Shown: positions 6,455 through 56,916, counted from the first letter of the stretch. The stretch is DNA of 60,950 bases from Alphaproteobacteria bacterium (GCA_028277285.1 JANQGO010000162.1:1-60950), one strand, 5' to 3'. The notes: generated from the sequence alone by a model not told the origin. A program made the numbers and translations.

Positions 6455-6464
6455 ACGTCACCAG

Positions 6465-6635
6465 GTTCTCCCTCTCCCCAGCGAGGGAGAGGGATGCGCA
6501 GGCTTGGGATCGTAAGATCCCTAGCCGTAGCTGGGTGAGGGGGGCTGGCGCGATGCCCTGGTCTAGATGTCTTTTTGCGCGCTGGCGCGCGACCCCTCAC
6601 CCCGGCCATCTCCCTCAAGGGGAGAGGGAGTCGAT
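6465..6635. repeat. cluster of REP-like GC-rich hairpins between convergent genes (see finding)
   Basis: Perfect 10-bp stem 6469-6478/6485-6494 (tccctctccc/gggagaggga). Stem 6506-6511/6516-6521 closes a GTAA loop, with outer ggct/agcc pairing. Long-range inverted repeat gggtgagggg 6533-6542 / cccctcaccc 6593-6602. Stem ctccctc 6610-6616 / gagggag 6624-6630. Confidence 0.55.
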
Positions 6636-7513
6636 GAGCCGCTGCCAGCGGTCGCGGCCAGATCCGCAGGTATGCCGTCGCGATAGCTGGGGTAGCGCAA
6701 ACGCACGCCCAGCTCGTCCTTGATCCGGCTGTTATCGACCCGCTTGTTGTCGCGATAGAAACTCTTCGCCATGTCCGACAGGTCGGCCTCGTCGAAGGGG
6801 ATTTCCGGCGGCGGTTCCAGGCCGAGCAGGTCGCATACATAGGCGACAACCTTGTCGGGCGCTTCCGCTTCGTCGTCGCAGACATTGTAGATACGACCGG
6901 GGTGAACATGCGTCATCGACGCGCGCACGACCTGGACGATATCGTCGACATGAATGCGCGAGAAAACCTGACCGGGTTTGACGACCCGCCTGGCGCGGCC
7001 CGATTGCACCTGACGCAACACGCCGCGGCCCGGACCGTAGATACCGGCGAGCCGGAAGATGTGGACGGGCATGCCGTAGCGTTCGGCCATCATCAGCCAC
7101 ATCTCTTCGGCCTCGGCGCGCCGGCGGCTGCGATCCATGGTCGGCGCGGCCGGTGTCTCCTCGTTCACCCAGCCGCCACCGTGGTCGCCATAGACGCCGG
7201 TCGTCGACAGATAACCCGCCCATTCGAGATCCTCGAGCGCGGCAAAGTCGCCGCCGTGCCAGAAGACCGGCGGTGCCGGCATGTCCGGTTGCGGCGGGAT
7301 CGAGTCGAGCAGATGGGTCGTGCCGGCGAGCGCCTCTGCCCCGTTCTCCATGGCCGCCGTCCCGTCGAAGACGTGAGCCTCGATACCCTCATCGGTCAGC
7401 GCCGCCTGCTTGCCGGCTGAACGGACCGTACCGGCAACCGTCCAGCCTTCGGCCTTGAGCGCCCGGGCGAGCGCGAGCGCGCTGTAGCCCAGACCAAAAC
7501 AGAAAAGCTTCAT
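6563..7513 (-). CDS. SDR family NAD(P)-dependent oxidoreductase / epimerase-like protein
   Basis: Track ORF trimmed to [19 protein letters not shown] (Rossmann GxGxxA). The ATG 7511-7513 overlaps the queG stop (ATGA). The last ~35 codons (..PSPLEGDGRGEGSRA..) read through the hairpin repeat, so the true C-terminus is uncertain. Confidence 0.72.
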   Translation of the reverse strand: MKLFCFGLGYSALALARALKAEGWTVAGTVRSAGKQAALTDEGIEAHVFDGTAAMENGAEALAGTTHLLDSIPPQPDMPAPPVFWHGGDFAALEDLEWAGYLSTTGVYGDHGGGWVNEETPAAPTMDRSRRRAEAEEMWLMMAERYGMPVHIFRLAGIYGPGRGVLRQVQSGRARRVVKPGQVFSRIHVDDIVQVVRASMTHVHPGRIYNVCDDEAEAPDKVVAYVCDLLGLEPPPEIPFDEADLSDMAKSFYRDNKRVDNSRIKDELGVRLRYPSYRDGIPADLAATAGSGSSTPSPLEGDGRGEGSRASAQKDI

Positions 7514-8643
7514 CAGGCAGCGTCCTCCCAATCAGGGCTTTGCCACTCGCCCCGTACATCCGCGTCGTCTTCATCCGGCAAGTGACGCGCGCGCAAGGTC
7601 TCGAACCGGTCGGCCGGCGCCAATCGGGACAGCGCCCAGACCGCCATCGCGCGCACCAGGGGCGAGACATCGTCAAGGCGCGCCGCCGCCACATCGGCCA
7701 GCGCCGGATCGCTACTGTTGCCGATCGCGATCAGCACGTTGCGCACGAAGCGGTCCCGTCCTGTCCGCTTGATCGGCGAGCCGCTGAACAAGCTACGGAA
7801 GCCCGCGTCATCGAGAGCGGCCAGGTCGGCCAGGCGCGGCGCGGTCAGTTCGACGCGCGGCAGGAAAGCCGGTTCCCTTGCGGCAGCGGCGAACTTGTTC
7901 CACGGGCAGACCGCCAGGCAATCGTCGCAGCCATAGATCCGGTTACCCATGGGCACGCGAAACTCACGCGCGATGTGGCCCTTGTGTTCGATCGTCAAAT
8001 AGGAAAGGCAGCGTCGTGCGTCCAGACGGTAGGGCGCGGGGAACGCATCGGTCGGGCAGATATCCAAACACGCCCGGCATGAGCCGCAGTGGTCGGCCTC
8101 CGCTTCGTCGGGCGCAAGGTCCAACGTGGTGAAGATCTCGCCGAGGAACAGCCAGGAGCCGAACTGCCGCGACACCAGATTGGTGTGCTTGCCCTGCCAG
8201 CCGACCGGCGTGCGCGCGGCAAGCGGCTTTTCCATCACCGGCGCGGTGTCGACGAACACCTTGACCTCGCAACCCGTCGCGTCGACCAGACGCCGTGCCA
8301 CCGCCTTCAAGCGCTTCTTCATGACGTCGTGATAGTCGCGGCCCTGGGCATAGACGGAGATCACCGCGCGATCGCGGTTGCCGAGCCGTGCCATCGGGTC
8401 GATCGCCGGTCCATAGTTCGCGCCGACAACCAGAACGCTGCGCACCGCTGGCCAAAGCGTCGTCGGCGCGGCGCGCTCGTCGATACGGCGCTCGAGCCAG
8501 TCCATGTCGCCCGCATAGCCGGCCGACAAGAAGCTATCCAGACGCGCGCGGCCGACTGCTTCCGGTGCGGCGATGCCGGCCGTATCGAACCCGGCCTCGC
8601 GGGCATAAGTAAGAAGGGTGTCCCGGCGCGCCTCGGCGTCCAT
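7513..8643 (-). CDS. queG: tRNA epoxyqueuosine(34) reductase
   Basis: Trimmed to [11 protein letters not shown].. at 8641-8643 (ATGA overlap with the gst stop). It has the two 4Fe-4S motifs [13 protein letters not shown] and [13 protein letters not shown], followed by a HEAT-like C-terminus (VRAMAVWAL). Confidence 0.9.
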
Positions 8644-9311
8644 CAAAAGTCGAGGTCGTCGTAATGCGACGACGGCCTGAGGCCCGGAATGCGGTCCTCC
8701 AGCAGGGGCTGGAACGACGGCCGCGACTTCACCCGGGCATACCAGTCGCGCGCGGCGTCCTGGTGCGACCACGGCACGTCGCCGATGTAGTCGATCGAGG
8801 AAAGCTGCGCCGCCGCCGCGACATCGGCCATGGAGAAACGCTCGCCGGCAAGCCAGGCCCGGCGTTCGGTCAGATAGGCGATATAGTCCAGGTGGACGCG
8901 GATGTTGGCGAGACCAGCGCGTACCGTCGCGGAGTCCGGTTCGCCGCGCCCCAGAAAACGCTTCATCACTTTCTCGCCGAACACGTTGCGCGTCGCTTCC
9001 TGATAGAACTTGTCGTCGAACCAGGCGATCAAGCGTCGGGTCTCCGCCCGCTCGGCCGGCGTCGCGCCCATCAGATCGGGCTGCGGCTGAACTTCATGAA
9101 GGTATTCGGCAATCGCGGAACTGTCGGCAATCGCCGTGTCGTCAGCCTCGACAAGCACCGGCACGCAGCCGGCGGGATTGAGACTGAGAAACGCGTCGCG
9201 ACGCTCCCAAACGTTCTCGCCGCGCAGCTCGAACGGCAGCCCTTTTTCCTTCAGGGTAATGCGAACCTTGCGGCAGAACGGCGAGAGCGGCATGTGATAG
9301 AGAATGCGCAT
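8643..9311 (-). CDS. glutathione S-transferase family protein
   Basis: 222-aa [31 protein letters not shown] is a thioredoxin-like GST N-domain, followed by a helical C-domain. Confidence 0.85.
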
Positions 9312-18490: not shown

Positions 18491-18577
18491 GCCCAGGTGG
18501 CGGAATTGGTAGACGCGCAGGTTTCAGGTACCTGTGGGGGAAACCCCGTGGAAGTTCGAGTCTTCTCCTGGGCACCA
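18491..18577 (+). tRNA. tRNA-Leu (anticodon CAG), CCA encoded
   Basis: Folded by hand. The acceptor GCCCAGG pairs with CCTGGGC. The anticodon stem is CAGGT/ACCTG with loop TTCAGGT, giving anticodon CAG. It has a long variable arm (GGGGGAAACCCC), a T-arm GAAGT-TCGAGTC-TTCTC, and ends in A-CCA. Confidence 0.93.
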
Positions 18578-29120: not shown

Positions 29121-30640
29121 GCGCTTTCGCCGCCAAGCTTCTTGGCGTCGAGACACAGAGCCAGAACCAGGCCGAGGACCGCAAAGGCGAGCGCGAGCCA
29201 ATAGGCCTGCTGCAGGCCGGCGGCGAAGGCGTCGCCGAGTGCCGCCTCAATCTTCTGGGCGGCATCGGTACCGTACCTCGCGAGGATGGTCTGCGCCGCC
29301 TCGCCATGGGCGCTGGCCGCGTTAAGCGCGGCCTGGTCCGCCGCCGACACGTTGAGGCCCGCTGTCGCAAGGCCCTGCTTGAGCGCACTCCGGCTCGTCT
29401 CGTACATGATCGCTGTCGCGCCGCCGACGCCGATAGCGCCGAGCCCAAGATGGAACATGTAAGCAAGGCCGCCCGCCAGCCCGGCGCGCGACGGATCGGC
29501 TGCGCTGACTGATGCGGTGCCGGCGGGGCTGAAGATCAAAGCACCGCCGAACGCCATCACGATCATCGGCGGTAGCGTGCCCGGATAGCCCCACGACGCC
29601 GGCGCAAAAATCATCCAGATCGAGGCGATCACGGCGAGCCCGTAACCCCAGGCGAGCAGCCGCCTGGGTCCGACGCTATTGTAGAACCGGCCCGTGACCA
29701 TGTTGCCGACCGCCATGATGACGAGAACTGGCAGAATGCCGATCGCCGACCACATGGCCGACCAGCCGAACGCCTTGTGATAGTACTGCGGCAGATAGAG
29801 AAACATCAGGAAGACCGGCGGCGACATCAGGCCGTTCATGGAAAGCGCGATCACCAATTGATGGTTCTTCATCATCGGGATCGGCACCATCGGATCAGCG
29901 ACACGGCCCTCGACGACGGGAAAAACGGCGAACATCACCAGGCAGAAGACGAAGAGGCCGATCACCGGCGCCGACGTCCACCCCCAATCGGCGCCGACGT
30001 CCAGGCCATAGAGCAGGCCGAACACGGCGAGCGACAAGACGATCATGCCGATCACGTCGACACGTTCGTCCGTACGCTCGGCACTGTCCTTCGGGACGAT
30101 GCGCCACAACAAGAGTGCGGAGATTGCCGCCAGGACGACATTGATCAAGAAGAACAGGCGCCATTCGCCGAGCCCGGCCAGAACGCCGGCAAGGAACGGC
30201 GCAATGGCGTTGCCGGTCGCGATAGCGCCCAGGAGCACGCCCATGACGATTCCGAACTTGTCCTTGGGCACCGACAAGGCGGCGACGGCGAGCATTGAGG
30301 GCCAAGCGATTGCCGACCCGATACCCTGGAACACACGCGCGCCGATAAGAAAGCCGATAGAGGGCGCCAAGGTGCAAGCGAGCGAGGCCAGAAAGAAGAC
30401 GCCAAGCCCGATCTGCAGGAAGCGCTTATGGCCGAACATATCGCCCAACCGGCCACCGGCAACCAGCATCATGGCCAGCGCCAACGCGTAGACGTTGAGC
30501 ACCCACTGGCTGGTCGTGATGTTGACCGCGAACTCCTGCTCGATCGGGATGACCAGGAGCATGGCGCCGGTAAAGTCCGTCCCGAGCATGAAGGACGGAA
30601 TGCAAAGCGCGGCGACGATGACCTTGGTGTGTCTGTCCAC
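29117..30640 (-). CDS. MFS transporter, DHA2 (EmrB/QacA-like, 14-TMS) family
   Basis: 507 aa and about 14 hydrophobic segments. It has the motif-A-like [12 protein letters not shown] and is convergent with ahcY (4-nt overlap). Confidence 0.85.
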
Positions 30641-30867
30641 AGTGCCCCCTTACACCAGCGGCGATACTAGACCGGATGGCGCGTGCCTACAGGCATCAAA
30701 CCATCGTCCGCCGCCTCCTCCCAGGCTGGGGGTTGAAATGCGGACAAGAAGACTGCTACCCCAAGTTATGGGTTGCCAATCAGCAGCAAACACAACCACT
30801 AGTGGTGACAACAGAACCCGCGGAGCCTAGACTTGTCCACGAATAGGTCGACAGCTTGGGGGCTCGC

Positions 30868-32190
30868 ATGTCGATTATTCGTCTCTTGATTACTGTTGTC
30901 GCCGTTGCACTGCTCTGGGGGTGCGGCGCAAACAACAATTCGATCTTCCGCACGACCGATGCGGATGACAACGACATCATCTTGGTCGACGCCAAGCAGC
31001 GCGGCATTCTGACGCAGACCGTCCGGATGCGGGAAGACGATGGTTTTCGTCAGCAACGCATCATTGCTTGTGCCGAACCCAGCCCGGATGTCTTCTCCGT
31101 CCTGAGCGCGGCTTTGACGACCAGCGCGACAATCGACCTTTCAAGCGGCGATAGTGCCGCTGGTGAATTGGCGACGGCGATCAGTGAAGCCGGAGGAAGC
31201 ATTGGGCTTCGCACTCAGACTATTCAAGTGCTTCGCGACATGATGTTTCGGCTATGCGAACGCTACTACAACAACGCCATTACGGGAGACGAGTTCGAAC
31301 AACAAGCTGCTCGAGACCAACGGTTGATCGCTTCTGTTCTCGCCATCGAACAGCTCACGGGTGCCGTCGTCCCCGCCCCCGTCACCGTTTTTGCCGCAGC
31401 TGAAGTCGACACCGGCGAAAGCCTCGTTGCCGCACAAAAGCTGCTTGATGAAGAGCGAGCAAAACTCGCTGAACTCGAAGCAACCGCATCCAAAAGCAGG
31501 GAAGCTGCCGATGCAGCAAAGAACAGCTATGAGACCAAGCTGAAGGCCAGAGAAGAAGGCGACACCACGATCTCAGACAGCGATCTCGAGGCGCTCAAGA
31601 ACCAGGCAGACACCACGGAGAATACCGCCGTTGATGACCGCAAGAGGGCCGAGGAAGCACAGGCTAACGTCGCGGCGCTAGAAGCGCGTCGTGACGCGGC
31701 TAGGGTCACAGCAGCAACGGGGAGCGCTGCCGGTCAGACTGGTGAAGTCGTCTACCAAAGCACGCTTGACCAGCACACAGCCGACGCCATCAGCGATGCT
31801 GTGGTCAACATCGTGGCGCTGGTGTTCGAGGACGACGAAGTCGCGAGGTCATGCATCAAGAAACTCAACGAACTCGAAGATGCAAGGGATCTTAACCAGT
31901 TCTGCCAAACCTATCTGAATGAAAAGAGAAAACTGGATGAAGCATTGAGGCTGGAGTTTACCGGCGCCGTCATGTCGACCGAGGACGTCGAGTCGATGCG
32001 CGGAGAGTACGGATCACTCCTTAACACCTTGTTCTTGGCCAACCCTGCCCGCGTCCAGCAACTGTTTAGCGAGTGGCTTGCGCGCGAAGGCCTTTCGCCC
32101 ACTCCAATAAGTATTTTCGTCAATTCTGCCTCGGGCGAGGAAAAGAAGTCGGCATACCTTTATGTTTCACAACGTCTCCAGGGAGCTTGA
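30868..32190 (+). CDS. hypothetical lipoprotein with central coiled-coil region
   Basis: MSIIRLLITVVAVALLWGC carries a lipobox (LWGC). Residues ~190-290 are heptad-like and rich in A/E/K. I recognised no domain. The local GC is lower (~52-53% on spot-counted lines). A TTG at 30856 is an alternative start. Confidence 0.6.
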   Translation: MSIIRLLITVVAVALLWGCGANNNSIFRTTDADDNDIILVDAKQRGILTQTVRMREDDGFRQQRIIACAEPSPDVFSVLSAALTTSATIDLSSGDSAAGELATAISEAGGSIGLRTQTIQVLRDMMFRLCERYYNNAITGDEFEQQAARDQRLIASVLAIEQLTGAVVPAPVTVFAAAEVDTGESLVAAQKLLDEERAKLAELEATASKSREAADAAKNSYETKLKAREEGDTTISDSDLEALKNQADTTENTAVDDRKRAEEAQANVAALEARRDAARVTAATGSAAGQTGEVVYQSTLDQHTADAISDAVVNIVALVFEDDEVARSCIKKLNELEDARDLNQFCQTYLNEKRKLDEALRLEFTGAVMSTEDVESMRGEYGSLLNTLFLANPARVQQLFSEWLAREGLSPTPISIFVNSASGEEKKSAYLYVSQRLQGA

Positions 32191-32195
32191 ATACG

Positions 32196-32402
32196 ATGCC
32201 AAACAACTCTGAAGACAAAAGCTCAAAGAGTGGATCTTTCGAGTCGGGTGCGATTGGAGAGAACGTTCACGACTTTGGTCCCATGGACAATCAAGCGACT
32301 GAGGACTTCATAAAAACATTCATCTTTGATGAGAACATTGACGGCATTCTCTTGGTGCGCCCTCAAACAAACGCATGGCTGATCAAAGTTCGACCCAAAT
32401 GA
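32196..32402 (+). CDS. hypothetical small protein (68 aa)
   Basis: The ATG lies 5 nt after the lipoprotein stop, on the same strand and in the same lower-GC islet. It is the inner part of track ORF 32073..32402. No motif was recognised. Confidence 0.4.
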   Translation: MPNNSEDKSSKSGSFESGAIGENVHDFGPMDNQATEDFIKTFIFDENIDGILLVRPQTNAWLIKVRPK

Positions 32403-32506
32403 GTAGCTGAACTGTCGCGTGCCACCGAGCGGCTCTTCGACGTCAAGACGTCCGCTCAGTATGTCAAAAAAGGAACACCCCTGGGCAGAACGCACAGATG
32501 AGTAGA

Positions 32507-33526
32507 TCACCCCGCCCCCGGCAGGCCCTTCGTCGTCGAGTATTCGAAGTGCAGTTCCTCGTCGGGATAGACCAGCGGGCGGATGGCGTGCGCCGCCATG
32601 GCGGCTTCGGAGAAGCCTGAGAGGATCAGCTTCAGCTTGCCCTGATAGGTCACGATATCGCCGATGGCGTAGATGCCGGGCTCGCTGGTCGCCGACGTCG
32701 CGGGGTCGGTGGTGATCAGATTGCGGTCGAGGTTGAGGCCCCAACCGGCGATTGGGCCGAGTTCCATGCGCAAGCCATAAAACGGCAGCAGCACGTCGGC
32801 GTCGAGCCGGCGTTCGTTGCCGTCGAGATCGGCGACGATGACCGCGTCGAGCTTGCCCTCCGATCCGTCGAGGCCATGGAGCTGATAGGGCACGACCATC
32901 TCGATCGCGCCGTCCTCGGCCAGCTTGTTCATGCGGTTCACGCTCTCGGGCGCGGCGCGGAACTTGGCGCGCCGGTGGACGACCATCAGCTTGTCGGCGA
33001 CCTCGGCCAGCGACAGCACCCAGTCGACCGCTGAATCGCCGCCGCCGGCGATGACGACCTTCTTGCCGCGATAGGTCTCGCGCCGGGTGACGTAGTAGGC
33101 GACGGCGCCGGAATCCTCGTAGGCCTCGATGCCTTCCATCGGCGGCCGGTTGGGACCGAACGAGCCGCAGCCCGCGGCGATGACGACCGCGCGGCAGGTG
33201 ATGACGGCGCCCTTCGATGTCTCGACCCGCCAGTCGTCGCCGTCGCGGGCCAGGGACACGACCTGCTGGTCCAAATGATAGACCGGGTCGAACGGCGCGG
33301 CCTGTTCGGCGAGCTTGTCGACGAGGTCCTGGGCCATGATCTCCGGGTAGCCCGGGATGTCATAGATCGGTTTTTCCGGATAAAGCGCCGTGCATTGGCC
33401 GCCGACCGCCTCCAGCGTGTCGACGACATGACAGCGCATGTCCAGCATGCCCGCCTCGAAGATCTGGAACAGCCCGACCGGACCGGCGCCGACCACCACA
33501 ATGTCGGTCTTGAACGCTTCGCTCAT
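32507..33526 (-). CDS. ferredoxin--NADP(+) reductase, thioredoxin-reductase-like type
   Basis: Trimmed to MSEAFKTDIVVVGAGPVGLF (FAD GxGxxG). It reads ..GGQCTALYPEKPIYDIPGYP.., has a second dinucleotide fold VVIAGGGDSAVDW, and is about 339 aa. Confidence 0.88.
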   Translation of the reverse strand: MSEAFKTDIVVVGAGPVGLFQIFEAGMLDMRCHVVDTLEAVGGQCTALYPEKPIYDIPGYPEIMAQDLVDKLAEQAAPFDPVYHLDQQVVSLARDGDDWRVETSKGAVITCRAVVIAAGCGSFGPNRPPMEGIEAYEDSGAVAYYVTRRETYRGKKVVIAGGGDSAVDWVLSLAEVADKLMVVHRRAKFRAAPESVNRMNKLAEDGAIEMVVPYQLHGLDGSEGKLDAVIVADLDGNERRLDADVLLPFYGLRMELGPIAGWGLNLDRNLITTDPATSATSEPGIYAIGDIVTYQGKLKLILSGFSEAAMAAHAIRPLVYPDEELHFEYSTTKGLPGAG

Positions 33527-42783: not shown

Positions 42784-42800
42784 GCGCGTTGGGTGCCGGC

Positions 42801-44180
42801 ATGACAGACGGCGGTCACACCGGCGGCGCTGACGAGGTCGCGGCGTTTCTGGAGCATTATCCGGAAACCCGCTGGGTCGATGCGATCATCCCCGACCTCT
42901 GCGCCATTCCGCGCGGCAAGCGGCTCGACGTCTCCGGCCTGAAGAAGGTCTTCGAGACGGGCATGGGACTGCCCGGCTCGACCTATGTCATGAACATCCT
43001 GGGCGAGAACGTCGACAGCACGGGGCTCGGACCGCCGGACGGCGATCCCGACTACCCATGTTTCGGCGTGCCCGGCACGCTGGCACCGGTGCCGTGGGTC
43101 GGGCCGGAGCAGGCCCAGGTGCTGATGACCATGAAGAACGATGCCGGCGAGCCCTATTGGCTCGATCCGCGCGTCATCGCCGGGCGCATGGTCGATCGGA
43201 TTGCCGCGCTGGGCTACACACCCGTCGTCGCGATCGAGTTGGAGTTCTACCTGATCGATCCGGAGACCGACGAGCTCGGCCGCCCCAAGCTGGCGCGCTC
43301 ACCCTTAACCGGCAAGCGCCCGCGCGAGACCCAGGTCTATCTGATGGACGAGCTCGACGCGTTCGCGCCGGTCCTGAACGACATCATCGATACCTGCCGC
43401 CAGCAGAACGTGCCGGCCGATGTCGCGACCATCGAATACGCGCCCGGCCAGTTCGAGATCAATCTGAACCACGTATCCGATCCGGTCGTCGCGTGCGATC
43501 ACGCGTTCCTGATGAAACGCGCGGTCAAGGGTGTGGCCGCGCGTCATGGCCTGGTCGCGACCTTCATGGCGCGGCCGTTCCGCAAGACCTCGACCAATGG
43601 CACGCACATTCATCTGAGCCTGTTGGACGGCGACGGCAGAAACGTCTTCGATGACGGCGGCAAGGACGGCAGCGATCTGTTGCGCCACGCCATCGGCGGC
43701 CTTGCCGAGACCATGGCCGAGGCCATGCCGATCTGGGCGCCGAACGCCAACTCCTATCGGCGCATCAGCCCGGTCGGCTGGGTGCCGCTGGCGCCGACCT
43801 GGGGCTACAACAACCGCTCCGTGGCGATCCGCGTGCCGAGCGGTGAGCCGACGTCACGGCGTTTGGAGCACCGCCCCGCCGGCGCCGACGCCAATCCCTA
43901 TCTGGTCATGGCGGCGACACTGGCCGGCGTGCACCACGGCCTCACGAACAAGGTCGATCCCGGCAAGCCGATCGTCGGCGATGCCGCCCAGCAGGTGCCA
44001 CCCAGCCTGCCGGCGATCTGGGTCGACGCGCTGCGCGCCTTCGACGACGCCAAGATCCTTCCGGATTACTTCGGTGCCGAATACTGGGATATCTACAGCA
44101 AGATCCGCTGGTCGGAGTTCCACGAGTTCAACGACCACATCTCCGCGCTCGAATACGACCGCTTCCTGCGCCTGGTTTGA
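42801..44180 (+). CDS. glutamine synthetase family protein (type I-like, gamma-glutamyl-amine synthetase/PuuA-like)
   Basis: About 459 aa from the ATG at 42801 (TTG 42789 is possible). It has the GS catalytic-domain pattern ..EYAPGQFEINL.., ..KPF....NGTHIHLSL.. and ..NSYRR..P...AP....WGYNNRSVAIRVP. Confidence 0.85.
   Translation: MTDGGHTGGADEVAAFLEHYPETRWVDAIIPDLCAIPRGKRLDVSGLKKVFETGMGLPGSTYVMNILGENVDSTGLGPPDGDPDYPCFGVPGTLAPVPWVGPEQAQVLMTMKNDAGEPYWLDPRVIAGRMVDRIAALGYTPVVAIELEFYLIDPETDELGRPKLARSPLTGKRPRETQVYLMDELDAFAPVLNDIIDTCRQQNVPADVATIEYAPGQFEINLNHVSDPVVACDHAFLMKRAVKGVAARHGLVATFMARPFRKTSTNGTHIHLSLLDGDGRNVFDDGGKDGSDLLRHAIGGLAETMAEAMPIWAPNANSYRRISPVGWVPLAPTWGYNNRSVAIRVPSGEPTSRRLEHRPAGADANPYLVMAATLAGVHHGLTNKVDPGKPIVGDAAQQVPPSLPAIWVDALRAFDDAKILPDYFGAEYWDIYSKIRWSEFHEFNDHISALEYDRFLRLV
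44031..44180 (+). repeat. left copy of a direct repeat (the 3' end of the glutamine-synthetase-like gene; att-like)
   Basis: 44082-44180 matches 45753-45851 with 6 mismatches in 99 nt. 44105-44170 is identical to 45776-45841 (66 nt). Weaker in-frame similarity extends back to 44031 / 45703. Confidence 0.9.
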
Positions 44181-45702
44181 CTGCTGTTTGGCATAGTCGG
44201 TTTTCGGTCGGAAGTGCCCAGCACTGACTGTGGCCAACGAATAGAGCTGGCCATGATTGGCCTTCGTGTTTATGTGTGCATAGTATTGTTTGTTCTAGAC
44301 CAATAGTGTTCAACTAATGGTTGCCATTCTTGTAAGAGGGGCTAAGACTGTAGTTGCTCAAAAGTCCTCTACTGTAGGTGTAGCAGAGCCAATATCCTGA
44401 ATGCCTATGCGCTCGGCAATCACAGCTAGACTGGATCACTAGGTTGGCCAGCCGGAAACACGACCTTCTATTCTGCGACAAAGACCTAAGTATGCTCATC
44501 CGCAGCTACGAACCTGCCATTCGGAGCGAAGTTGACGGATGGGAGCGAAATCGAGTCTTGTCTTCTAGTGAACCTGACTTGATCGCTTACTTGGTAGACA
44601 AGTACACGCTTGATCCTCCTCGGCTGCACCGGGACCAAATACACATCGAGGATGAAGGGGAGCGGAAGATCGACGTAAGTGGTCGATTCGACTACGGTGC
44701 AGCTTACGGAGATGGCGGGCCACATTTCGTGCCCGGATCTTACGTTACCGTCGCCGTTCCTTTTGAAGGCGACCCAGACTTATTCGAGTTTCGAGCCTCA
44801 ACATACACCCTCAATCCACCTCGCGGTCGAATCTCCGCTCCACATTTGCTTATCTCGTTTTCCGACGTGAAGCTTGAACCTGAACGCTTAACTCAAGAGA
44901 TTGACCGCAATCTAGACAGCATTGAACAGCATCTAGGATGGATCACTAGCGACTGTGAACAGTGGAACAGTCGTGTCGAGAACATCGCTCGTCAGTGCTT
45001 AGACACTCGCAAGGGTCGCCTTCTAGAACAAGCTGACATGGTTAGCGCCCTTGGAATCCCGATTAGGAAACGGGCCGATAGTCCCGGTAGCGTGTCGATT
45101 CCCGTTAGTCGAAAAAAACGTCCAATCGAACTACCAAGTGTACCAACTGAAGCGTTCAAGCCCGAGCCTGCGCTTCCCAATGAAGACTACGATTTCATTC
45201 TCGATGTCATCGACCGATTGGCTCTTTCAATTGAACGAAGCCCAAGCACGTTCGTTCACATGAACGAAGAACAGATCCGCGACTTCATACTCGTAAGCCT
45301 AAATGGCCACTACGAAGGAGATGCCACCGGAGAAACGTTCAATTCTGAAGGAAAAACTGACATTCTGATTCGGGCAAATGGCAAAAACGCATTCATCGCA
45401 GAGTGCAAGATTTGGCAAGGGCCGCGAGCATTCCATTCAGCAATTGATCAAGTGCTCGGATACCTAACCTGGAGGGACACCAAGGCGGCAGTGGTGGTGT
45501 TCAGCAAGAACGCAGATTTCACCAATGTACTGACGAGCATCGCGTCAACCGTTCCTGAACACACGCATTTCAAGCAAGAACTTCGCAGGATTAGCGATAC
45601 GCACGTTCGTTACTTGTTTCGCCAGAAAGCGGACCCGGCCAGAGATCTATACTTAGCAGTACAGGTCTTCAACATACCGCGACCAAGCGCCAGTTAGGAC
45701 GT
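44181..45702. mobile_element. AT-richer insertion (islet) without mobility genes, bounded by the duplicated gene 3' end
   Basis: Spot-counted lines give ~45-50% GC against ~68% in the flanking gene. The repeat period is 1671 bp. It carries a single ORF, and no integrase or transposase ORF appears in any frame. Confidence 0.6.
44444..45697 (+). CDS. hypothetical protein with C-terminal PD-(D/E)xK-type nuclease motif (candidate defence/nuclease protein)
   Basis: 417 aa from the TTG at 44444 (ATG 44492 is an alternative). The C-terminus reads EEQIRDFILVSLNGHYEGDATGETFNSEGKTDILIRANGKNAFIAECKIWQGPRAFHSAIDQVLGYLTWRD. D306, E320-x-K322 and a following Q-helix fit the restriction-endonuclease-like core. 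I did not recognise the N-terminal ~280 aa. Confidence 0.7.
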   Translation: MASRKHDLLFCDKDLSMLIRSYEPAIRSEVDGWERNRVLSSSEPDLIAYLVDKYTLDPPRLHRDQIHIEDEGERKIDVSGRFDYGAAYGDGGPHFVPGSYVTVAVPFEGDPDLFEFRASTYTLNPPRGRISAPHLLISFSDVKLEPERLTQEIDRNLDSIEQHLGWITSDCEQWNSRVENIARQCLDTRKGRLLEQADMVSALGIPIRKRADSPGSVSIPVSRKKRPIELPSVPTEAFKPEPALPNEDYDFILDVIDRLALSIERSPSTFVHMNEEQIRDFILVSLNGHYEGDATGETFNSEGKTDILIRANGKNAFIAECKIWQGPRAFHSAIDQVLGYLTWRDTKAAVVVFSKNADFTNVLTSIASTVPEHTHFKQELRRISDTHVRYLFRQKADPARDLYLAVQVFNIPRPSAS

Positions 45703-45851
45703 CTAACTGCTTCGACGACACTAACGCCCGGCCATTCAATCTCAGCAGCGAGTGCTGGGACATCTACAGCAAGAGCCGCTGGTCGGAGTTCCACGAGTTC
45801 AACGACCACATCTCCGCGCTCGAATACGACCGCTTCCTGCGATTGGTGTGA
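45703..45851 (+). pseudogene. orphan 3' fragment of a glutamine-synthetase-like gene (right copy of the direct repeat)
   Basis: In frame it reads ..CFDDTNARPFNLSSECWDIYSKSRWSEFHEFNDHISALEYDRFLRLV*. The intact gene has ..AFDDAKILPDYFGAEYWDIYSKIRWSEFHEFNDHISALEYDRFLRLV*. It has no start and no upstream GS sequence. Confidence 0.85.
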
Positions 45852-45858
45852 ATCTGCT

Positions 45859-46470
45859 CTAGCGTGTCGCAATCGCGACGCCGGAGCCGATCAGCACCGT
45901 GCCCGTCACCTGCTGCAGGCGCCGCATGGCCTTTGCCGACGCCATGAAGCGGCGCGCCCGGTCGACCAGCAGGACCGCGGCGCCATAGATCAGGTAAGAA
46001 ACCCCGGCGACCACCGCGGCCAGGACGACGAAATCGCCGGCGCCGACTTGAGTGATGTCAATGAAGGTCGGCAAGAGCGCGCCGAAGAACAGGATGGCCT
46101 TCGGGTTGCCCAGCGTGGCCAGCATGCCCATCGCCAGGTCGCGCCACAGGACGCCGCGTGTTTGCGTACCCACCGCATAGGCGCCTTCCTTGCCAATGAT
46201 GGCGCGGTAGCCGCGCCAAATCAGGTAAGCGGCGCCGGCATACTTCACGACCTCGAACAGCGGTCCCATGGTCGCCGCGATCGCCAGCAGGCCGACGAAG
46301 GCAATGCCGAGGAAAACGATGTCGGCCAAGGCAAGGCCGGTGATGACCGCAACGCCCGCCTTGGGGCCGCCACCCAGCGTGCGCGAGACGACAATCGCCA
46401 GCCCCGGGCCGGGCAAGAGCGTCCACAAGAACATGCTGACGGCAAAGATGACGAGGTCGTCAAAGTGCAT
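45859..46470 (-). CDS. LysE/RhtB family amino-acid translocator
   Basis: 203 aa and about 6 TMS. The N-terminal pattern FLWTLLPGPGLAIVVSRTL.GG is typical of LysE-family exporters. Confidence 0.85.
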   Translation of the reverse strand: MHFDDLVIFAVSMFLWTLLPGPGLAIVVSRTLGGGPKAGVAVITGLALADIVFLGIAFVGLLAIAATMGPLFEVVKYAGAAYLIWRGYRAIIGKEGAYAVGTQTRGVLWRDLAMGMLATLGNPKAILFFGALLPTFIDITQVGAGDFVVLAAVVAGVSYLIYGAAVLLVDRARRFMASAKAMRRLQQVTGTVLIGSGVAIATR

Positions 46471-46638
46471 AGCGCCGTGTCTCCGTTAGGACCGTCATGC
46501 CGATCGCAGGCAAGTTTGTCCATAGGAAAGGGTCTGTTACGGTGTTGCGGATGATCGCGGCGGTCGGATCAAATAGCGGACACCGGAACCGACCGCGAGA
46601 CTGGCGCGCGCTGGGCCGCCAGGTGGAGGCTTGGGGCG

Positions 46639-47412
46639 ATGGGGTCAGATCCGGGTATCGATATCGCGTGGTTCGTGGCGCTTTTCGCCGCCATCCCGGT
46701 CGTGACGGCAATCGTGTTGCAGTGGCTCAGTCAACACTCGCCGCTCACCCCGGCACTGGCGTCCTACAGAGGCGTGGTCGCACCGTTCTTTGTCTCGGTC
46801 GCGCTCTTGTTTGGCCTGTTCGCCACGTTCCTGGCGGCCGAGATCTGGGAACGGGTCAACGACAGCAGCCACAGCCTGGAGCACGAAATCGGTGCCATAA
46901 GGACCATTAGTCAAATCGCCGACGCGCTCGGCGAGCCGGGCTACCCCATCGCCAACGCCGTGGCCGAATACACCTCGGTCGTCATCGACGAAGAACAGAA
47001 CATTACGTCGGGCATCCGATCGGCGGCCGCGGAGGCCGCGCTGCGCAAACTGATGCAGGGCATTCTCGCGCTCGAGGGTGCCGAGCCACAGCATGACGCG
47101 GCCTTGAACGCGCTGTTGACGTCGTTCCGCGATCTGCGTCAAGCCAGGGCGACACGTATCCACATCGCGGCGACCCACAGCGATCCCTACAAGTGGATTA
47201 CGGTGATTGTCCTGGGCATCGTGACCCAGATCGCGCTCGTCTTTTGTCACGTCGACAACCGCAAGGCCCAGGCGGCCGCGCTTGCCATTTTCACGTTGGG
47301 CTTTGTCGTGACCCTGATTGCGCTCGGCATCCACGAACGCCCGCTGACCGATCCGCAGCTCACCGAAATGAGTTTCCTCTATCACGGGGGTACAACGAAC
47401 CAGTCACCCTGA
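46639..47412 (+). CDS. membrane protein, DUF4239-like
   Basis: 257 aa. It has two N-terminal TMS, a central soluble helical region (EIWERVNDSSHSLEHEIGAIRTI) and two C-terminal TMS. The family assignment is from memory only. Confidence 0.5.
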   Translation: MGSDPGIDIAWFVALFAAIPVVTAIVLQWLSQHSPLTPALASYRGVVAPFFVSVALLFGLFATFLAAEIWERVNDSSHSLEHEIGAIRTISQIADALGEPGYPIANAVAEYTSVVIDEEQNITSGIRSAAAEAALRKLMQGILALEGAEPQHDAALNALLTSFRDLRQARATRIHIAATHSDPYKWITVIVLGIVTQIALVFCHVDNRKAQAAALAIFTLGFVVTLIALGIHERPLTDPQLTEMSFLYHGGTTNQSP

Positions 47413-47420
47413 CGCCGCCA

Positions 47421-52454: not shown

Positions 52455-53726
52455 ATGGAACCTGCCAAGAGGGAGATTTGCGTTTTGCAGCACAACCCAG
52501 CAGACAGGACGTTCGTTCGGTTCGGTCGCCTCGCGCGGCCTGTTGCCTTTGTCGGCTGCCACCACCTGACCCATGATCTTCCTGATTACTTTCGCGGATG
52601 GTCGATCGCACAGGTTTCGGGGCAAGCGGTGCCGGATCCCATCATCACCGTCGCCAGGACGGCACGAGGCTACAGCCTGACCGCGTCGTGGCTGGATGAG
52701 CCGCTTCAGCGTCGCGATGAGGTCGACTGTGTTTGCGCCCTCATTGCCGAACTTGTCCGTGCCAGCGTCGACAGCGATCCCGGAAGCCTGTGCCTTCATG
52801 CCGCCGCGGCGCGGATTGCCGGGCATCTGGTCGTGTTCCCCAATCGGTACCGAGCCGGCAAGTCGCTGCTTTCCGCATGCCTGGCGGCGCACGGCGCACG
52901 CCTTCTCGCCGACGATGTGGTGCCGCTTGGGGCTCAAGACGGCCATGCCCTGGCGTCAGGTATCTTGCCCCGCCTTCGCCTGCCGCTGCCGGACAATCTC
53001 GAGCGGCGCACGCGGGCCTTTATCGCGCGCCATCGTGGACCCAGGAACGACCACTACGCCTATCTGGACCTGCCGCCCAGCCGTCTTGCGCCCCGCGGCG
53101 AAAGTGCGGCGATCGACGGCATCGTCCTGCTCGATCGACGGGACGGCGGTGCTGCCAGCTTGGAGGCAATCGGACAAAGCGAAGCTCTGCGTCAGATCAT
53201 TCTACAGAATTTCGCCCGCGAGCCTGACGCCGGGCAGATCCTGGAGCGGCTGCAGCGGATCGTCGGCCAAGCGACGTGCCACCGCTTGACCTATGCTCGC
53301 GCCGATGACGCCGCACGGCTGCTCCTCGACATCTTTTCTCAACCCGCCGCGGCGTCAGAGCAGGCACCGACGCCCGCGCAGGCCCGATCGATCGGCACAA
53401 CCGTTGACGTTGGGGCCGGGCGTGGCAGCTTCGTTCGCCGCGACGGCTTGCGTGAGACCCACATTGACGGCGAACACTATCTGGCGGACGCCCGGAACGG
53501 CGCGATCCACCACCTCGATCCGATCGCGACCGCCATCTGGCGGCTTCTGGACGAAGCGACCGGCGAAGACGAGGTCGTCGCGGCCCTTACCGACGCCTTT
53601 CCTGGCGTGCCCGGCGAAACCGTAGCCCGCGATGTCGCGGCGCTGCTCGACGACCTTCGCCAACGCGACCTGATCGTTGCCATGGACGAGAACGTCGATG
53701 CGCATTGCCGCAGCTTGCGACCTTAG
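52455..53726 (+). CDS. HprK-related kinase-like domain fused to a C-terminal PqqD-family (RRE-type) domain
   Basis: 423 aa. LCLHAAAARIAGHLVVFPNRYRAGKSLLSACLAAHGARLLADDVVPL resembles the HAxxV...GxSGxGKS(T)L...G..L..DD core of HPr-kinase-related kinases, and GKS is retained at residues 135-137. The C-terminus HYLADARNGAIHHLDPIATAIWRLLDEATGEDEVVAALTDAFPGVPGETVARDVAALLDDLRQRDLIV fits the PqqD pattern (LN..a..iW.l.dG..t..ei...l......e...Dv..fl..L...gli). Confidence 0.65.
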   Translation: MEPAKREICVLQHNPADRTFVRFGRLARPVAFVGCHHLTHDLPDYFRGWSIAQVSGQAVPDPIITVARTARGYSLTASWLDEPLQRRDEVDCVCALIAELVRASVDSDPGSLCLHAAAARIAGHLVVFPNRYRAGKSLLSACLAAHGARLLADDVVPLGAQDGHALASGILPRLRLPLPDNLERRTRAFIARHRGPRNDHYAYLDLPPSRLAPRGESAAIDGIVLLDRRDGGAASLEAIGQSEALRQIILQNFAREPDAGQILERLQRIVGQATCHRLTYARADDAARLLLDIFSQPAAASEQAPTPAQARSIGTTVDVGAGRGSFVRRDGLRETHIDGEHYLADARNGAIHHLDPIATAIWRLLDEATGEDEVVAALTDAFPGVPGETVARDVAALLDDLRQRDLIVAMDENVDAHCRSLRP

Positions 53727-54568
53727 CCGCGTTTTCGCGCCAGAATCTCGACCGGAACGGTGCGCCCTTCGGCAACCGCACGTGAGGAGTTGGCCATCAT
53801 GACGGCCGCTCCCTCGCCATGGATCAGGGGAACCGAGCGGTGCGGCGGCTTTTCGCCGCGTTCAACAAGCGCCTTGGAACGTGCCCCGAAATCTTTGGAT
53901 TCGGCGGCCGTGTCACGGACCTGGACGATCAGGAATCCGGCGGCTTCCAGGCCGGACCGGGTCGCCTCCACGCTCGTCAGAAAGTTTGTCTCGGCCGTCT
54001 GTGCCCAAGGCAGCGGGTAATCCGGCTCCGGGCCGTCGCCGCGCGCGAACTCCGACAAGACCAGCCGGGCACCTGGTTTCAGGACCCGCGCGAACTCGGC
54101 GTAGAGGCCGTCCTTGTCGGCGATGTTCATCGAGACGTTCATGGTGTAGGCGGCATCGAACGTGCCGTCGGCGAACGGCATCGCCAGCGCGTCGCCGACC
54201 TCGAACGACACGCGGTCGTCCAAACCGAGCAGCGTTGTGAGCGAGCGCGCGACCTCGCAGAACACCGGCGTCAGATCGACACCCGTTACCCGGCAACCGA
54301 ACCGGTCGGCCACGTAACGCGCCGGCCCGCCGATACCGCTGCCGACATCCAGGACATGGTCGGAGGCGAGGAGCGACAGCAGGTTGGCGACATCCTCGGT
54401 CGCCTCAAGCCCACGACCGTGAAACTGGTCATAGGGCGCAAGTGCGGCGATGGTCGGCCGGTCCGGGTCGGCGCCGTCATCCCGCAATGCCGCCGCCAGC
54501 CGGTCGAAGAGATCGCCGCTGGTGTAGTGGCTTGTGACGTCTTTGCTCATGGCGAGAACGTCATACAA
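53723..54568 (-). CDS. class I SAM-dependent methyltransferase
   Basis: 281 aa. It has motif I VLDVGSGIGGPARYVA and post-I CRVTGVDLT, followed by ..FDAAYTMNVSMNI.. It is convergent with the kinase-like gene, and the stop codons overlap (53723-53726). Confidence 0.85.
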   Translation of the reverse strand: MYDVLAMSKDVTSHYTSGDLFDRLAAALRDDGADPDRPTIAALAPYDQFHGRGLEATEDVANLLSLLASDHVLDVGSGIGGPARYVADRFGCRVTGVDLTPVFCEVARSLTTLLGLDDRVSFEVGDALAMPFADGTFDAAYTMNVSMNIADKDGLYAEFARVLKPGARLVLSEFARGDGPEPDYPLPWAQTAETNFLTSVEATRSGLEAAGFLIVQVRDTAAESKDFGARSKALVERGEKPPHRSVPLIHGEGAAVMMANSSRAVAEGRTVPVEILARKRG

Positions 54569-54956
54569 ATCAATTGCTCCGAAAACCCCAAAAGCTGTTC
54601 CTTCGATGAATCCTAGGTACCAGCGCTAATCCGACATAACTCGATATTTTGGTGCATCACGCTCTGGCTAGAATGACCAACAGGCCCCGTGGCACGAGCT
54701 CCTTTAACCCAGGAAGTGTTCGATCAGTCGAACAGCCGGCAGCTTTCAGGCGGACCAAGCCAAAGGCTTCTAATCACGCGCCATCTAGACCACGACAGAT
54801 TTGACGCACCCACTGGACCTTCCGCCAAGCCTAAGCGTAACATTAGTTATTGAACCATCGAGTGTAGTAGGTCTGGCGTGAGTATGAATTTGCGAGAATT
54901 ACTTGAACGAGTCGCCATTCGATAGCTTTGCTTACACCATTTGAGAGGGGGATCAG

Positions 54957-55121
54957 ATGCGGAATTGGTCTCGAAGCAGATTTTTTGGCCTGATTGCAGC
55001 AATAGCGCTGAGCTTCGCAGTTTCTTCTTGTGACGATGACGGATCGGGAGACTCGGGCTCGTCCGACGAAGTGCTACAATTAGATGGTGGCCATGGAACT
55101 GGAGGTGGCAGTGGTGATTAG
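54957..55121 (+). CDS. putative 54-aa acidic mini-lipoprotein
   Basis: Not in the ORF track (under 60 aa). A strong RBS (GAGGGGG) lies 7 nt upstream. The translation is MRNWSRSRFFGLIAAIALSFAVSSC/DDDGSGDSGSSDEVLQLDGGHGTGGGSGD, i.e. a positive n-region, a hydrophobic core, the lipobox VSSC, and a D/G/S-rich mature part. Its stop is 6 nt before the next ATG. Confidence 0.5.
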   Translation: MRNWSRSRFFGLIAAIALSFAVSSCDDDGSGDSGSSDEVLQLDGGHGTGGGSGD

Positions 55122-55127
55122 AGTTAG

Positions 55128-56129
55128 ATGAAGTTACCGCTTACATTCGGAAACAGGCTGCTTTTAAGGTTCTTGTTACCGGGGGCTATAGTAGCCACTG
55201 GCTTAAGTCCACTTCTACACCTTCTCGCTGGAAGATTAAATGTTCCAGTCGATAGTTTATACTTGTTTCCTGCAACAACATTGATTTCCGGTTGGATACT
55301 CTCTCTATTTGATATGCCGATTTACATGATCATGGAAGGCCGCGCTCTTTGGCCTAAGTGGCTGAAAGAACGATGCATGAAAACACAAAGAAAAAAGCTA
55401 GATAGATGGATTTCCAAGGCTCGCAATTACGAGAAAAATGGCAATGAAGCTGAAGCAACCGAGATGGAAGTCAAAGCATACCGATATCCTATAGGTAATG
55501 GAAAATACAATTCAAACTCCGGCGTTCCTACAGTCGTATTGCCTACTGAACTTGGCAATGTAATCTACGGATATGAAACTTACTCGATGGTCAAGTACGG
55601 CGCAGATGGAGTTTTCTTCTGGGAGCGCATTTGGATGGGCTTGGACGCGGACCTCAGAAGGGAAATAGATGAGAGACAAGCAATTTGCGACAGCGCTGTT
55701 TACTCAAGCTTCTCCTGCTTTGTTAATACTATTCTTTTCTTGATTTTCTCAATTTTTCTTATGTTGTCATCTATTTTCAGTTTGGATTTGGCGAGCAATC
55801 TCACGGCCTGGCAGCGCGCCGTGGAGTTTTTGGTCGTGTCGCTGTTCTTTCTTGTTCTTTGGGGGGTGTTCTATCGAGCTGCAGTCAGCACAAACTTCCA
55901 ATTCGGAGAACGCTTGAAGGCTATGTTTGATTCTAATCTTGATAAGCTGGCGATAAGCGATGCATTACTTATGGTTAGCAAGCGAACGGGTGCCATATAC
56001 ACGACTACGTCCTTCGATCCTGACAATGTAATGGCAGCGTGGAGATACCTTCGTTGGCACAAATTCCGCCCACCTCAGGCCAAGTCGAACATAAATATTG
56101 AACACGCGAAAAAACAAAACAATAAATGA
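55128..56129 (+). CDS. hypothetical 4-TM membrane protein
   Basis: 333 aa in a ~40% GC islet (two spot-counted lines gave 38-40%). It has two N-terminal TM helices, a ~130-aa soluble loop (..PTELGNVIYGYETYSMVKYGADGVFFWERIW..), two more TM helices and a basic C-terminal tail. No domain was recognised. Confidence 0.65.
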   Translation: MKLPLTFGNRLLLRFLLPGAIVATGLSPLLHLLAGRLNVPVDSLYLFPATTLISGWILSLFDMPIYMIMEGRALWPKWLKERCMKTQRKKLDRWISKARNYEKNGNEAEATEMEVKAYRYPIGNGKYNSNSGVPTVVLPTELGNVIYGYETYSMVKYGADGVFFWERIWMGLDADLRREIDERQAICDSAVYSSFSCFVNTILFLIFSIFLMLSSIFSLDLASNLTAWQRAVEFLVVSLFFLVLWGVFYRAAVSTNFQFGERLKAMFDSNLDKLAISDALLMVSKRTGAIYTTTSFDPDNVMAAWRYLRWHKFRPPQAKSNINIEHAKKQNNK

Positions 56130-56274
56130 GTTAAGTTCCTATCCGAAAAAAAAACAATGCGGAATGCGTTGGCCATGAATGCGAGTATTCCAATAGTTCA
56201 ACATTTGGAGCACCAATTCAAGGTTCACGATTCTTCATGGCCTTGTCCAAAATTTCTTTGCTATCGTGTTCAGC

Positions 56275-56916
56275 TTACAGTCTTCGCACTTTGTCCAGGA
56301 AGATTCTGACTTTCTCTGGGTCCTTGACGCCGGGCGCGGACTCGACGCCGCTCGACACGTCGACGCAGCGCGCGCCCGTCAGGTTCACGGCCTCAGCCAC
56401 ATTCTCGGGGTCCAGGCCACCCGCCAGCATCCACGGCCTCCTGAAGCTGCGCCCCGCCATAAGCCGCCAATCGAAGGCGATCGCGTTTCCGCCCGGCAGG
56501 GTCGCGCCCTTGGGCGGTTTGGTATCGAACATCAACCATTCGGCCACCGGTTCGTAACCGGCCACGGCCTCCAGGTCGTCGGCCTCGCTGACCTTGATCA
56601 CCTTCATGATATCGACGCCGAAACGCGTCCGGATATCGGCGGCGCGCTCGGGCGCTTCCTGCCCGTGGAGCTGCACCATCGACAAACCAGCGGCCGCGAT
56701 GGCGCCTTCCAGCAGCATGTCGTCGGGATCGACAAAGACACCGACCTTGCCGACGGCGCCAGGCACGCGGGCGGCGAGCGCGCGCGCCTCCTCCATGCTC
56801 ACGAAGCGTGGGCTCTTCTCAAAGAAGTTGAGGCCGACGAAGCGCGCGCGATGGGCGACCGCCGCGTCCAAGGCTTCGGCACTCGTGATGCCGCAGATCT
56901 TTGTATCAACCGCCAT
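56275..56916 (-). CDS. trpF: phosphoribosylanthranilate isomerase
   Basis: 213 aa. It reads MAVDTKICGITSAE.., ..VQLHG.. and ..AGGLDPENVAEAV....GVDVSSGVE. Confidence 0.94.
   Translation of the reverse strand: MAVDTKICGITSAEALDAAVAHRARFVGLNFFEKSPRFVSMEEARALAARVPGAVGKVGVFVDPDDMLLEGAIAAAGLSMVQLHGQEAPERAADIRTRFGVDIMKVIKVSEADDLEAVAGYEPVAEWLMFDTKPPKGATLPGGNAIAFDWRLMAGRSFRRPWMLAGGLDPENVAEAVNLTGARCVDVSSGVESAPGVKDPEKVRIFLDKVRRL

Follow-up and report, generated by a model that had tools for sequence, protein, structure and literature searches.

The DNA analysed here is a stretch of 60,950 nucleotides (nt) from Alphaproteobacteria bacterium (GCA_028277285.1 JANQGO010000162.1:1-60950), referred to below as the window, and its subject is a 1.67-kb islet that directly follows an intact gene of the glutamine synthetase (GS) family. 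The islet consists of a non-coding spacer, one open reading frame (ORF) of note, called the cargo, a gap of 51 nt after the cargo stop codon, and a second, untranslated copy of the last part of the GS-like gene, beyond which lies a convergent gene for a LysE-family exporter (Table 1). The GS-like product has 463 amino acids when counted from a TTG start codon and 459 in database calls, and an exact-protein look-up returned no record for it. The contig is otherwise made up of housekeeping genes.

The two copies of the GS gene end form a direct repeat of 103 nt with 93% identity (96/103), whose starts lie 1671 nt apart. Within it, an exact core of 66 nt is found twice in the window, where shuffled sequences lead to an expectation of zero. 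Both copies encode the same peptide end, ...RFLRLV*, and the tails that follow the core, CGC CTG GTT TGA in the proximal copy (copy 1) and CGA TTG GTG TGA in the distal one (copy 2), differ at three positions that are all synonymous. The similarity ends exactly at the stop codon, with 14 mismatches in the 20 nt beyond. Towards the left, mismatches between the copies rise stepwise, from 0/66 in the core to 4/27 and then to 25/47. These outermost 47 nt, which precede the 103-nt repeat, still show an in-register identity of 22/47 (empirical p ~0.001-0.005), but this weak signal hinges on the single 9-mer TTCGACGAC (45711-45719), the other 29 nt giving 11/29 (p = 0.10), and in BLAST comparisons with real GS genes copy 2 is detectable only from about position 45745 on. 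No start codon in the distal copy yields an ORF of at least 50 amino acids. A preliminary description of this DNA had already recognised the duplicated GS 3' end, its identical 66-bp core, the spacing of 1671 bp and three differences in the last 10 nt, all of which were reproduced by the repeat comparison; the length of about 150 nt that it gave is reduced to a robust repeat of about 103 nt. The leftward divergence of the distal copy that it reported persists as a weak trace, and its remark that this copy stays in frame is trivial for an ungapped repeat.

Table 1. Features of the GS locus and the islet (positions counted from the first letter of the window)
Feature	Coordinates	Strand	Remarks
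GS-like gene, glutamine-synthetase family	42789..44180	+	intact, ends ...RFLRLV*; Pfam Gln-synt_C E 3e-97
Proximal repeat copy (copy 1, attL-like)	44078..44180	+	final 103 nt of the working GS gene; core 44105-44170
Spacer, non-coding, 263 nt, 47.5% GC	44181..44443	.	left-hand stretch of the foreign DNA
Cargo gene, 417 aa (401 aa if start 44492)	44444..45697	+	PADLOC PDC-S54 match
Distal repeat copy (copy 2, attR-like)	45749..45851	+	untranslated GS 3' fragment; core 45776-45841
Junction ATCTGCT, 7 nt, copy-2 stop to LysE stop	45852..45858	.	
LysE-family exporter gene, convergent right flank	45859..46470	-	Pfam LysE E 6e-27

In its base composition, the DNA between the copies is foreign and has not been ameliorated. 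Its GC content in 300-nt windows is 0.47-0.54, against 0.62-0.72 in the flanks, in agreement with the AT-richness that had been estimated before, and the GC content at third codon positions is 0.52 in the cargo compared with 0.86 in the GS-like and LysE genes. The repeat itself is real; at the level of k-mers, it cannot be an assembly artefact. Among contigs made by a second assembler (Logan, k=31 graph, run SRR20820740), L086 corresponds to window positions 44141-45805 and L001 to 45812-47200, both with 100% identity; together they cover the passage from the copy-1 tail into the islet, from the islet into copy 2, and from the copy-2 tail into LysE, and these junctions were found in two runs. 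The contigs break 30 nt inside the core, as a k=31 graph requires. It could be argued from this ambiguity at the 66-nt core that the repeat was mis-resolved, the true state being an empty chromosome plus a separate circle of 1671 bp. This is so improbable as to be nearly negligible, given that every junction sequence is identical in the contigs of another assembler and in two runs, that the tails differ, so that the repeat is not a collapsed or expanded identical one, that reads of at least 100 nt would cross the whole core, and that a 1.67-kb one-gene circle devoid of a replication function is an implausible replicon.

The locus was compared with its relatives by scanning GTDB with the GS protein, one genome per species, which gave 80 loci; the members of that protein's 90% cluster added two same-genus contigs. 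Three same-genus relatives are available, L006 (OZ245842.1), L167 (GCA_039028155.1) and L168 (ERZ25073760), whose flanks have 83-96% nucleotide identity with the window. The GS-like gene is 94% identical to its L006 orthologue, and the synteny addAB-trx-GS is conserved in the flank. All three relatives have a single GS end, with no islet, no cargo and no duplication. Their homology with the window ends at 44176-44180 and begins again at 45855-45859; the segment that differs lies exactly between the GS and LysE stop codons. Between these two stops, the relatives carry a DUF1330 gene, accompanied in L006 and L168 by an HxlR gene that L167 has lost relative to its sister L168; no remnants of DUF1330, HxlR or GST are found in the window. 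The divergence of LysE from its relatives (80-88%) is in line with that between the relatives' lineages (79-81%), and as it follows the phylogeny, LysE is vertically inherited; a foreign LysE co-transferred with the islet was rejected on the same ground. Of the findings that the preliminary description had regarded as fatal to its reading, namely an arrangement shared by all relatives, an ordinary base composition or an assembly artefact, none was found.

The wider interval from GS to folC (window 44181-47420) was compared with L006, L167-L170, L007-L011 and L036. In relatives at 72%, GS is directly convergent on folC with no genes in between; L170 has genes for a pyridoxal-phosphate (PLP) decarboxylase and a flavin-containing-monooxygenase (FMO)-like monooxygenase in this interval, and L169 has one for ACPS (phosphopantetheinyl transferase). 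Members of the genus have different selections from DUF1330, HxlR, LysE, a bestrophin-like gene (truncated in L006) and GST. Because its contents differ between lineages, the interval after GS is a plastic spot, a hotspot of gene flux. In L168, the GS orthologue is called as two ORFs of 141 and 115 amino acids (7001-7760) despite continuous nucleotide homology, which is most likely a frameshift error of a long-read assembly rather than a pseudogene.

By sequence, the cargo is a full-length member of the PADLOC candidate anti-phage family PDC-S54 (PDLC05036), which it matches with an E-value of 2.2e-146, residues 6-412 of 417 aligning to profile positions 4-407 of 410. Systems of the PDC class number 145; they were proposed as phage defence candidates on the basis of genes lying within BREX, DISARM and type I restriction-modification (R-M) loci and are untested (bioRxiv 10.1101/2024.01.29.577857); a literature search for PDC-S54 found no paper. 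More than 4000 homologues of the cargo exist, the best one other than itself having 70% identity. The protein has no Pfam match, a PHROGs search gave nothing informative, and plasmid and phage databases gave weak ORF-internal matches in actinobacterial plasmids and protein matches of 28-30% in two gut phages. In the C-terminal domain, residues D306, E320 and K322 (D306...E320-x-K322) are invariant in 42 homologues, and AlphaFold2 (AF2) models, with a mean confidence (pLDDT) of 79 for the full-length protein and 81.5 for the C-terminal domain, predict the order alpha-beta-beta-beta-alpha-beta around them. This suggests a candidate PD-(D/E)xK nuclease fold. The assignment is kept at candidate level because the Foldseek comparison of the full-length and C-terminal models with the PDB was not significant, with nothing below an E-value of 0.02 and weak matches to YaeQ, SfsA and McrC only; a profile search of PDB sequences with the cargo likewise gave nothing below E 0.46.

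Homologues of the cargo are found in diverse contexts. The closest one (L003) lies inside a prophage, and another (L004) lies beside type I R-M genes and an IS3 element. In L133, the homologue is flanked by 130-nt repeats (403-532 and 1793-1922) of the attC-like form GCCTAAC...GTTAGGC, which indicates at the sequence level that the PDC-S54 family also travels as integron cassettes. In L165, it stands between two copies of sequence resembling an HsdS C-terminus (LRDALLPKLMKGEIRV; 948-1024 and 2292-2371, 81 nt, 79%), the upstream one lying only in a 92-aa ORF; this may be another cargo homologue bracketed by a duplicated gene end, and both copies may be fragments. Other repeats at such loci are not attC-like: in L132, a 381-nt direct repeat with 90% identity (5003-5383 and 8804-9184) brackets a 3.8-kb segment with the homologue and membrane-protein ORFs, and in L099 (5905-8950) five repeats of about 50 nt (…TTTTTCGCAAAATAAATAGTCGCTGA…) separate the homologue and three small ORFs. 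The L003 prophage also encodes, at 5055-8558 on the minus strand, a product of 1167 amino acids with precomputed matches to Phage_portal_2, HNH_4, RuvC_III and, weakly, Cas9_a, an unusual fusion if real.

The islet holds no recombinase, in agreement with the preliminary description: the cargo is its only ORF of note, and ORF and domain searches reveal in it no recombinase, relaxase or type IV secretion system (T4SS) domain. No integrase gene adjoins either att-like site, the 263 nt next to copy 1 being non-coding and the cargo ending 51 nt before copy 2. The spacer has no homology in the relatives, in GS loci, in loci of cargo homologues or elsewhere in the window, and contains one weak terminator-like hairpin (44249-44262); a promoter and terminator scan gave nothing above chance, with a single terminator-like site and no promoter of the sigma-70 type. 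Rfam and tRNA scans returned only a tRNA-Leu at 18491, unrelated to the islet, and a literature search for elements integrating at the glnA end produced nothing relevant. An integron gene cassette was rejected, as there is no attC 3' of the cargo ORF; the pattern RYYYAAC...GTTRRRY is absent from both strands of 44101-45900. A transposon or insertion sequence (IS) was rejected as well, there being no transposase, an end inverted repeat of 9 nt at chance level, and a duplication of 103 nt that follows a gene end. That inverted repeat is the perfect pair CCCAGCACT / AGTGCTGGG at 44217-44225 and 45751-45759, near both islet ends (12/14 over 14 nt), whose distal arm is completed by a TAC>TGC change unique to copy 2; its length is expected by chance in 1.7 kb, and it is given no meaning.

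The sequence of the copies provides clues to their origin. The core matches L006 at 65/66 positions and L167 and L168 at 64/66, falling to 60-62/66 in relatives at 78-81% and to at most 52/66 in those at 72%. Since the core is typical of the lineage, the incoming GS-like segment would be of the same genus, and the right part of copy 2 derives from a GS gene of that genus. Copy 1 and the remainder of the GS gene are alike in diverging by about 5-7% from the same-genus relatives. The one change unique to copy 1 is silent, as are all differences to the right of the core. Just left of the core, copy 2 has unique nonsynonymous changes, TAC>TGC (Y->C) and ATC>AGC (I->S), at residues that are conserved in the surveyed GS orthologues, and farther out its left arm matches recognisable GS ends at only 1-5 of 16 amino acids, with no GS orthologue that fits. 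The idea that copy 2 is a piece of some distant, genuine GS gene was therefore rejected, its right part being genus-specific and its left arm unlike GS orthologues. The pattern fits a boundary at or in the core, with sequence from a working gene to the right and sequence long untranslated to the left.

An intact gene with a synonymous variant 3' end, together with a displaced untranslated fragment, reads as the footprint of gene-end recombination. It is proposed that the islet is a recently acquired single-gene insert of 1.67 kb, placed after the conserved GS-like gene in a gene-flux hotspot through one Campbell-type crossover in the GS 3' end, a reading given a little better than an even chance; the crossover, its direction, its enzyme and an extra deletion are what we infer, and the sequence data establish the repeat, the foreign base composition, the lack of the islet in relatives, both junctions and the family of the cargo. 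The incoming partner would be a circular DNA from a same-genus bacterium, carrying the cargo and a copy of the GS gene end. A single reciprocal crossover within the last ~100 nt of the GS gene would then yield, on one side, a GS gene that remains functional, its end being recombinant but synonymous, with the islet behind it, and, on the far side, a displaced untranslated GS 3' fragment adjoining LysE, with DUF1330/HxlR lost in a separate event. In such a crossover, the attB-type junction would be GS-left + core + CGATTGGTGTGA + ATCTGCT + LysE, and the attP-type junction copy-2 left arm + core + CGCCTGGTTTGA + spacer. A right edge at the GS stop codon and silent tail differences are expected if both ends evolved within functional GS genes, and the nonsynonymous changes of copy 2, followed by a leftward collapse of similarity, are expected for sequence carried untranslated on an element. 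As for the enzyme, the balance leans towards a site-specific recombinase, supplied in trans or since lost, as catalyst of the crossover, the islet then being a decayed integrative element or resembling a cis-mobilisable element (CIME); this version takes up the greater part of the chance given to the crossover but, by itself, stays below even.

Several observations weigh against this proposal. There is no strictly empty GS-LysE junction among the relatives, none has the predicted attB context, and all three same-genus ones carry DUF1330, so that a second event is needed. The copy-1 tail is at least as host-like as that of copy 2, given the relatives' tails (L006, CGT CTG GTT TGA; L167, CGC CTG GTG TAA; L168, CGG CTG GTG TAA), and neither can be assigned as host-derived. 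No integrase, transposase or other recombinase domain is found in 38 ORFs scanned across the 61-kb contig, a second GS C-terminus occurs at 0 of 73 GS loci (tblastn with the GS C-terminal 49 amino acids; 68 hit loci plus L167-L170), and an exact 35-nt core pattern has 0 matches in IMG/VR and JGI metagenomes. The GS fragment is absent from all 83 loci of cargo homologues, with which the nucleotide homology of the islet is limited to the ORF (44495-45678). The ~50 nt between the cargo stop and the robust repeat leave little room for an arm-type attP there. Finally, RecA, given 66-103 nt of homology, would account for the structure just as well.

These results bear on what the preliminary description had suggested, which was site-specific integration of a CIME-like element, or of a larger island since stripped down, with host-derived sequence facing outward in each copy and the distal copy as the ancestral gene end. 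The gene-end recombination footprint that it saw holds, and the recombinase and the CIME membership are not demonstrated. Because RecA-mediated Campbell recombination predicts an identical structure, neither site-specific integration nor such a membership can be claimed; integration and transfer genes are indeed lacking, and a partner with the same att site, be it an integrative and conjugative element (ICE) or an integrative and mobilisable element (IME), was not found in the contig, the 73 GS loci, IMG/VR or JGI. On the outward-facing host sequence the tails do not decide, that of copy 1 being at least as near to the relatives (L006). A distal copy as ancestral end requires an extra DUF1330/HxlR deletion, because no relative has GS abutting LysE and all three same-genus ones have DUF1330 after GS. 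The empty-site search that it had advised turned up relatives free of islet and duplication and none in which GS abuts LysE, and its idea that cargo homologues might share the insertion target found no example in the 83 loci.

The same Campbell topology could have been produced by RecA acting on a circle with the cargo and a same-genus GS 3' fragment that never had an integrase, a possibility judged somewhat unlikely. Such a circle might originate from another strain, excised there by recombination between repeats, and reach the cell via transformation, transduction or a gene-transfer agent; through its repeats of 66-103 nt, the islet could later leave the site or move once more. RecA has a minimal pairing length of roughly 25-30 nt, which 66 identical nt within 103 nt at 93% exceed, and mismatches border the identical block to its left and right, a pattern expected when diverged partners undergo a homologous crossover; the stepwise leftward decay fits variable end-points, unlike a fixed overlap of 6-8 bp, and neither recombinase nor sister elements appear in the scanned ORFs and loci. 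Yet this route requires a circular double-stranded intermediate and an unexplained earlier event linking the cargo to a GS fragment, integrase-borne mimics of gene ends classically show the same features, a repeat that ends exactly at the stop codon and differences that are all silent, and a second example was not found. A broader version, in which the islet is an integrase-free, homology-anchored defence cassette made of one defence gene and a decoy host gene end, is quite doubtful. RecA alone would insert such a cassette by a Campbell crossover that does not destroy the gene, and would loop it out again; the HsdS-fragment arrangement in L165 is a possible second instance.

Alternatively, the whole arrangement could stem from a different strain or species of this genus and have entered through double homologous recombination between conserved flanking sequences, with GS as the left flank and LysE or beyond as the right one. 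Such flanking exchange is the usual way in which the contents of hotspots are swapped, the GS-folC interval differs in every lineage examined, and a one-step replacement of a segment bounded exactly by two stop codons accounts for the absent DUF1330/HxlR remnants. This import is nevertheless unlikely: the LysE and GS genes of the window show the divergence of vertical descent with no foreign tract visible, and the origin of the duplication is merely moved to the donor rather than explained. A further explanation is a duplication in situ, by which foreign DNA went in through illegitimate or replication-based joining (template switching, staggered breaks) that copied about 100-150 nt of the GS end, and the distal copy then drifted as a pseudogene fragment. 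It agrees with the counts of substitutions unique against the genus consensus, four in copy 2 and one in copy 1, and with the lack of a mobility gene and of a second example of the arrangement. However, drift should be even, whereas the mismatches go from 0/66 in the core to 25/47 further left, the repeat ends exactly at the stop codon, and three tail differences that are all synonymous, with the stop kept, are unlikely for neutral decay (~0.02, a rough estimate); this explanation is regarded as decidedly improbable.

Compared with known systems, the proposed gene-end crossover has its closest counterpart in prophage e14 of Escherichia coli, where icd runs into the prophage and icdC, a C-terminal pseudogene, lies at the far end (PMC13626634), and where a chimeric gene that functions is regained when the two copies recombine (PMC13626634, citing Hill et al. 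1989). As with e14 (and phage 21) in icd of E. coli K-12, the target is protein-coding, the gene runs into the element, and a C-terminal fragment is displaced. In both cases the gene end supplied by the element would differ mainly at silent or conservative positions, GS here being intact through copy 1 with 3 silent changes. Unlike e14, which has 15 kb and its own integrase and excision functions, the islet has 1.67 kb, one gene that is not a recombinase and a GS-family target, and it is known here from sequence. CIMEs are elements that have lost integration and transfer genes but keep attL and attR (PMC5704250). The islet resembles them, for instance those at the 3' end of fda in Streptococcus thermophilus, in its att-like repeats that include the target-gene end and in the lack of integration and transfer genes. 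The fda repeats in S. thermophilus are about 27 bp long. CIMEs, by contrast, are recognised via ICEs or IMEs that share their att site and have an integrase that acts on them, and no partner element, integrase or accretion was found for the islet. It is also like defence islets in hotspots, being a single low-GC gene of defence type in a variable interval between conserved housekeeping genes; the 103-nt repeat is an extra feature, as hotspot turnover through flanking homologous recombination alone would leave the gene end unduplicated. Like the PDC-S54 candidates predicted by 'guilt-by-embedding', the cargo is a full-length match with homologues in R-M, prophage and cassette contexts, but unlike embedded PDC candidates it stands alone after a metabolic gene. 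By analogy, the event appears to be of a known type, an e14/icd-like gene-end replacement reduced to one defence-candidate gene at the end of a GS-family gene, and no new mechanism by itself.

Elsewhere in the window, a second low-GC islet (54570-56270; GC 0.40-0.52 vs ~0.65), of similar size to the one after GS, lies between a methyltransferase-like ORF (53723-54568, minus strand) and a trpF-like ORF (56275-56916, minus strand). It contains one ORF of 333 amino acids (55128-56129, plus strand) with several hydrophobic segments and no PADLOC or PHROG match. It has no flanking direct repeat of at least 16 nt and no shared ends or similarity with the GS islet. The methyltransferase-like ORF has a partial PADLOC match to mad2 (E 1.4e-19, residues 46-178), which is probably generic similarity among S-adenosylmethionine (SAM) methyltransferases. 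In addition, an ORF of 444 amino acids with no Pfam domain (30856-32190, plus strand), beside a gene for a major facilitator superfamily (MFS) transporter in a region with a GC content of 0.57-0.60 (30000-33000), may be another acquired gene.

The end of a GS-family gene, here in an alphaproteobacterial lineage that is uncultured, was not found to be used as a target in this way in the other loci surveyed or in the literature searches. If the proposed origin is true, the islet would be a minimal and sharply bounded example of how a single candidate anti-phage gene can come to adjoin the end of a metabolic gene of essential type and leave it undamaged. With 1.7 kb and two 103-nt repeats, it offers a compact substrate on which the movement of integrase-less islets can be tested, contrasting an integrase acting in trans with RecA. 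Should the homology-anchored cassette be true instead, it would represent a general route by which defence genes are embedded next to or inside conserved genes. PDC-S54 itself, which is found in cassette, prophage, R-M-adjacent and stand-alone contexts, emerges as a highly mobile family that merits a functional test.

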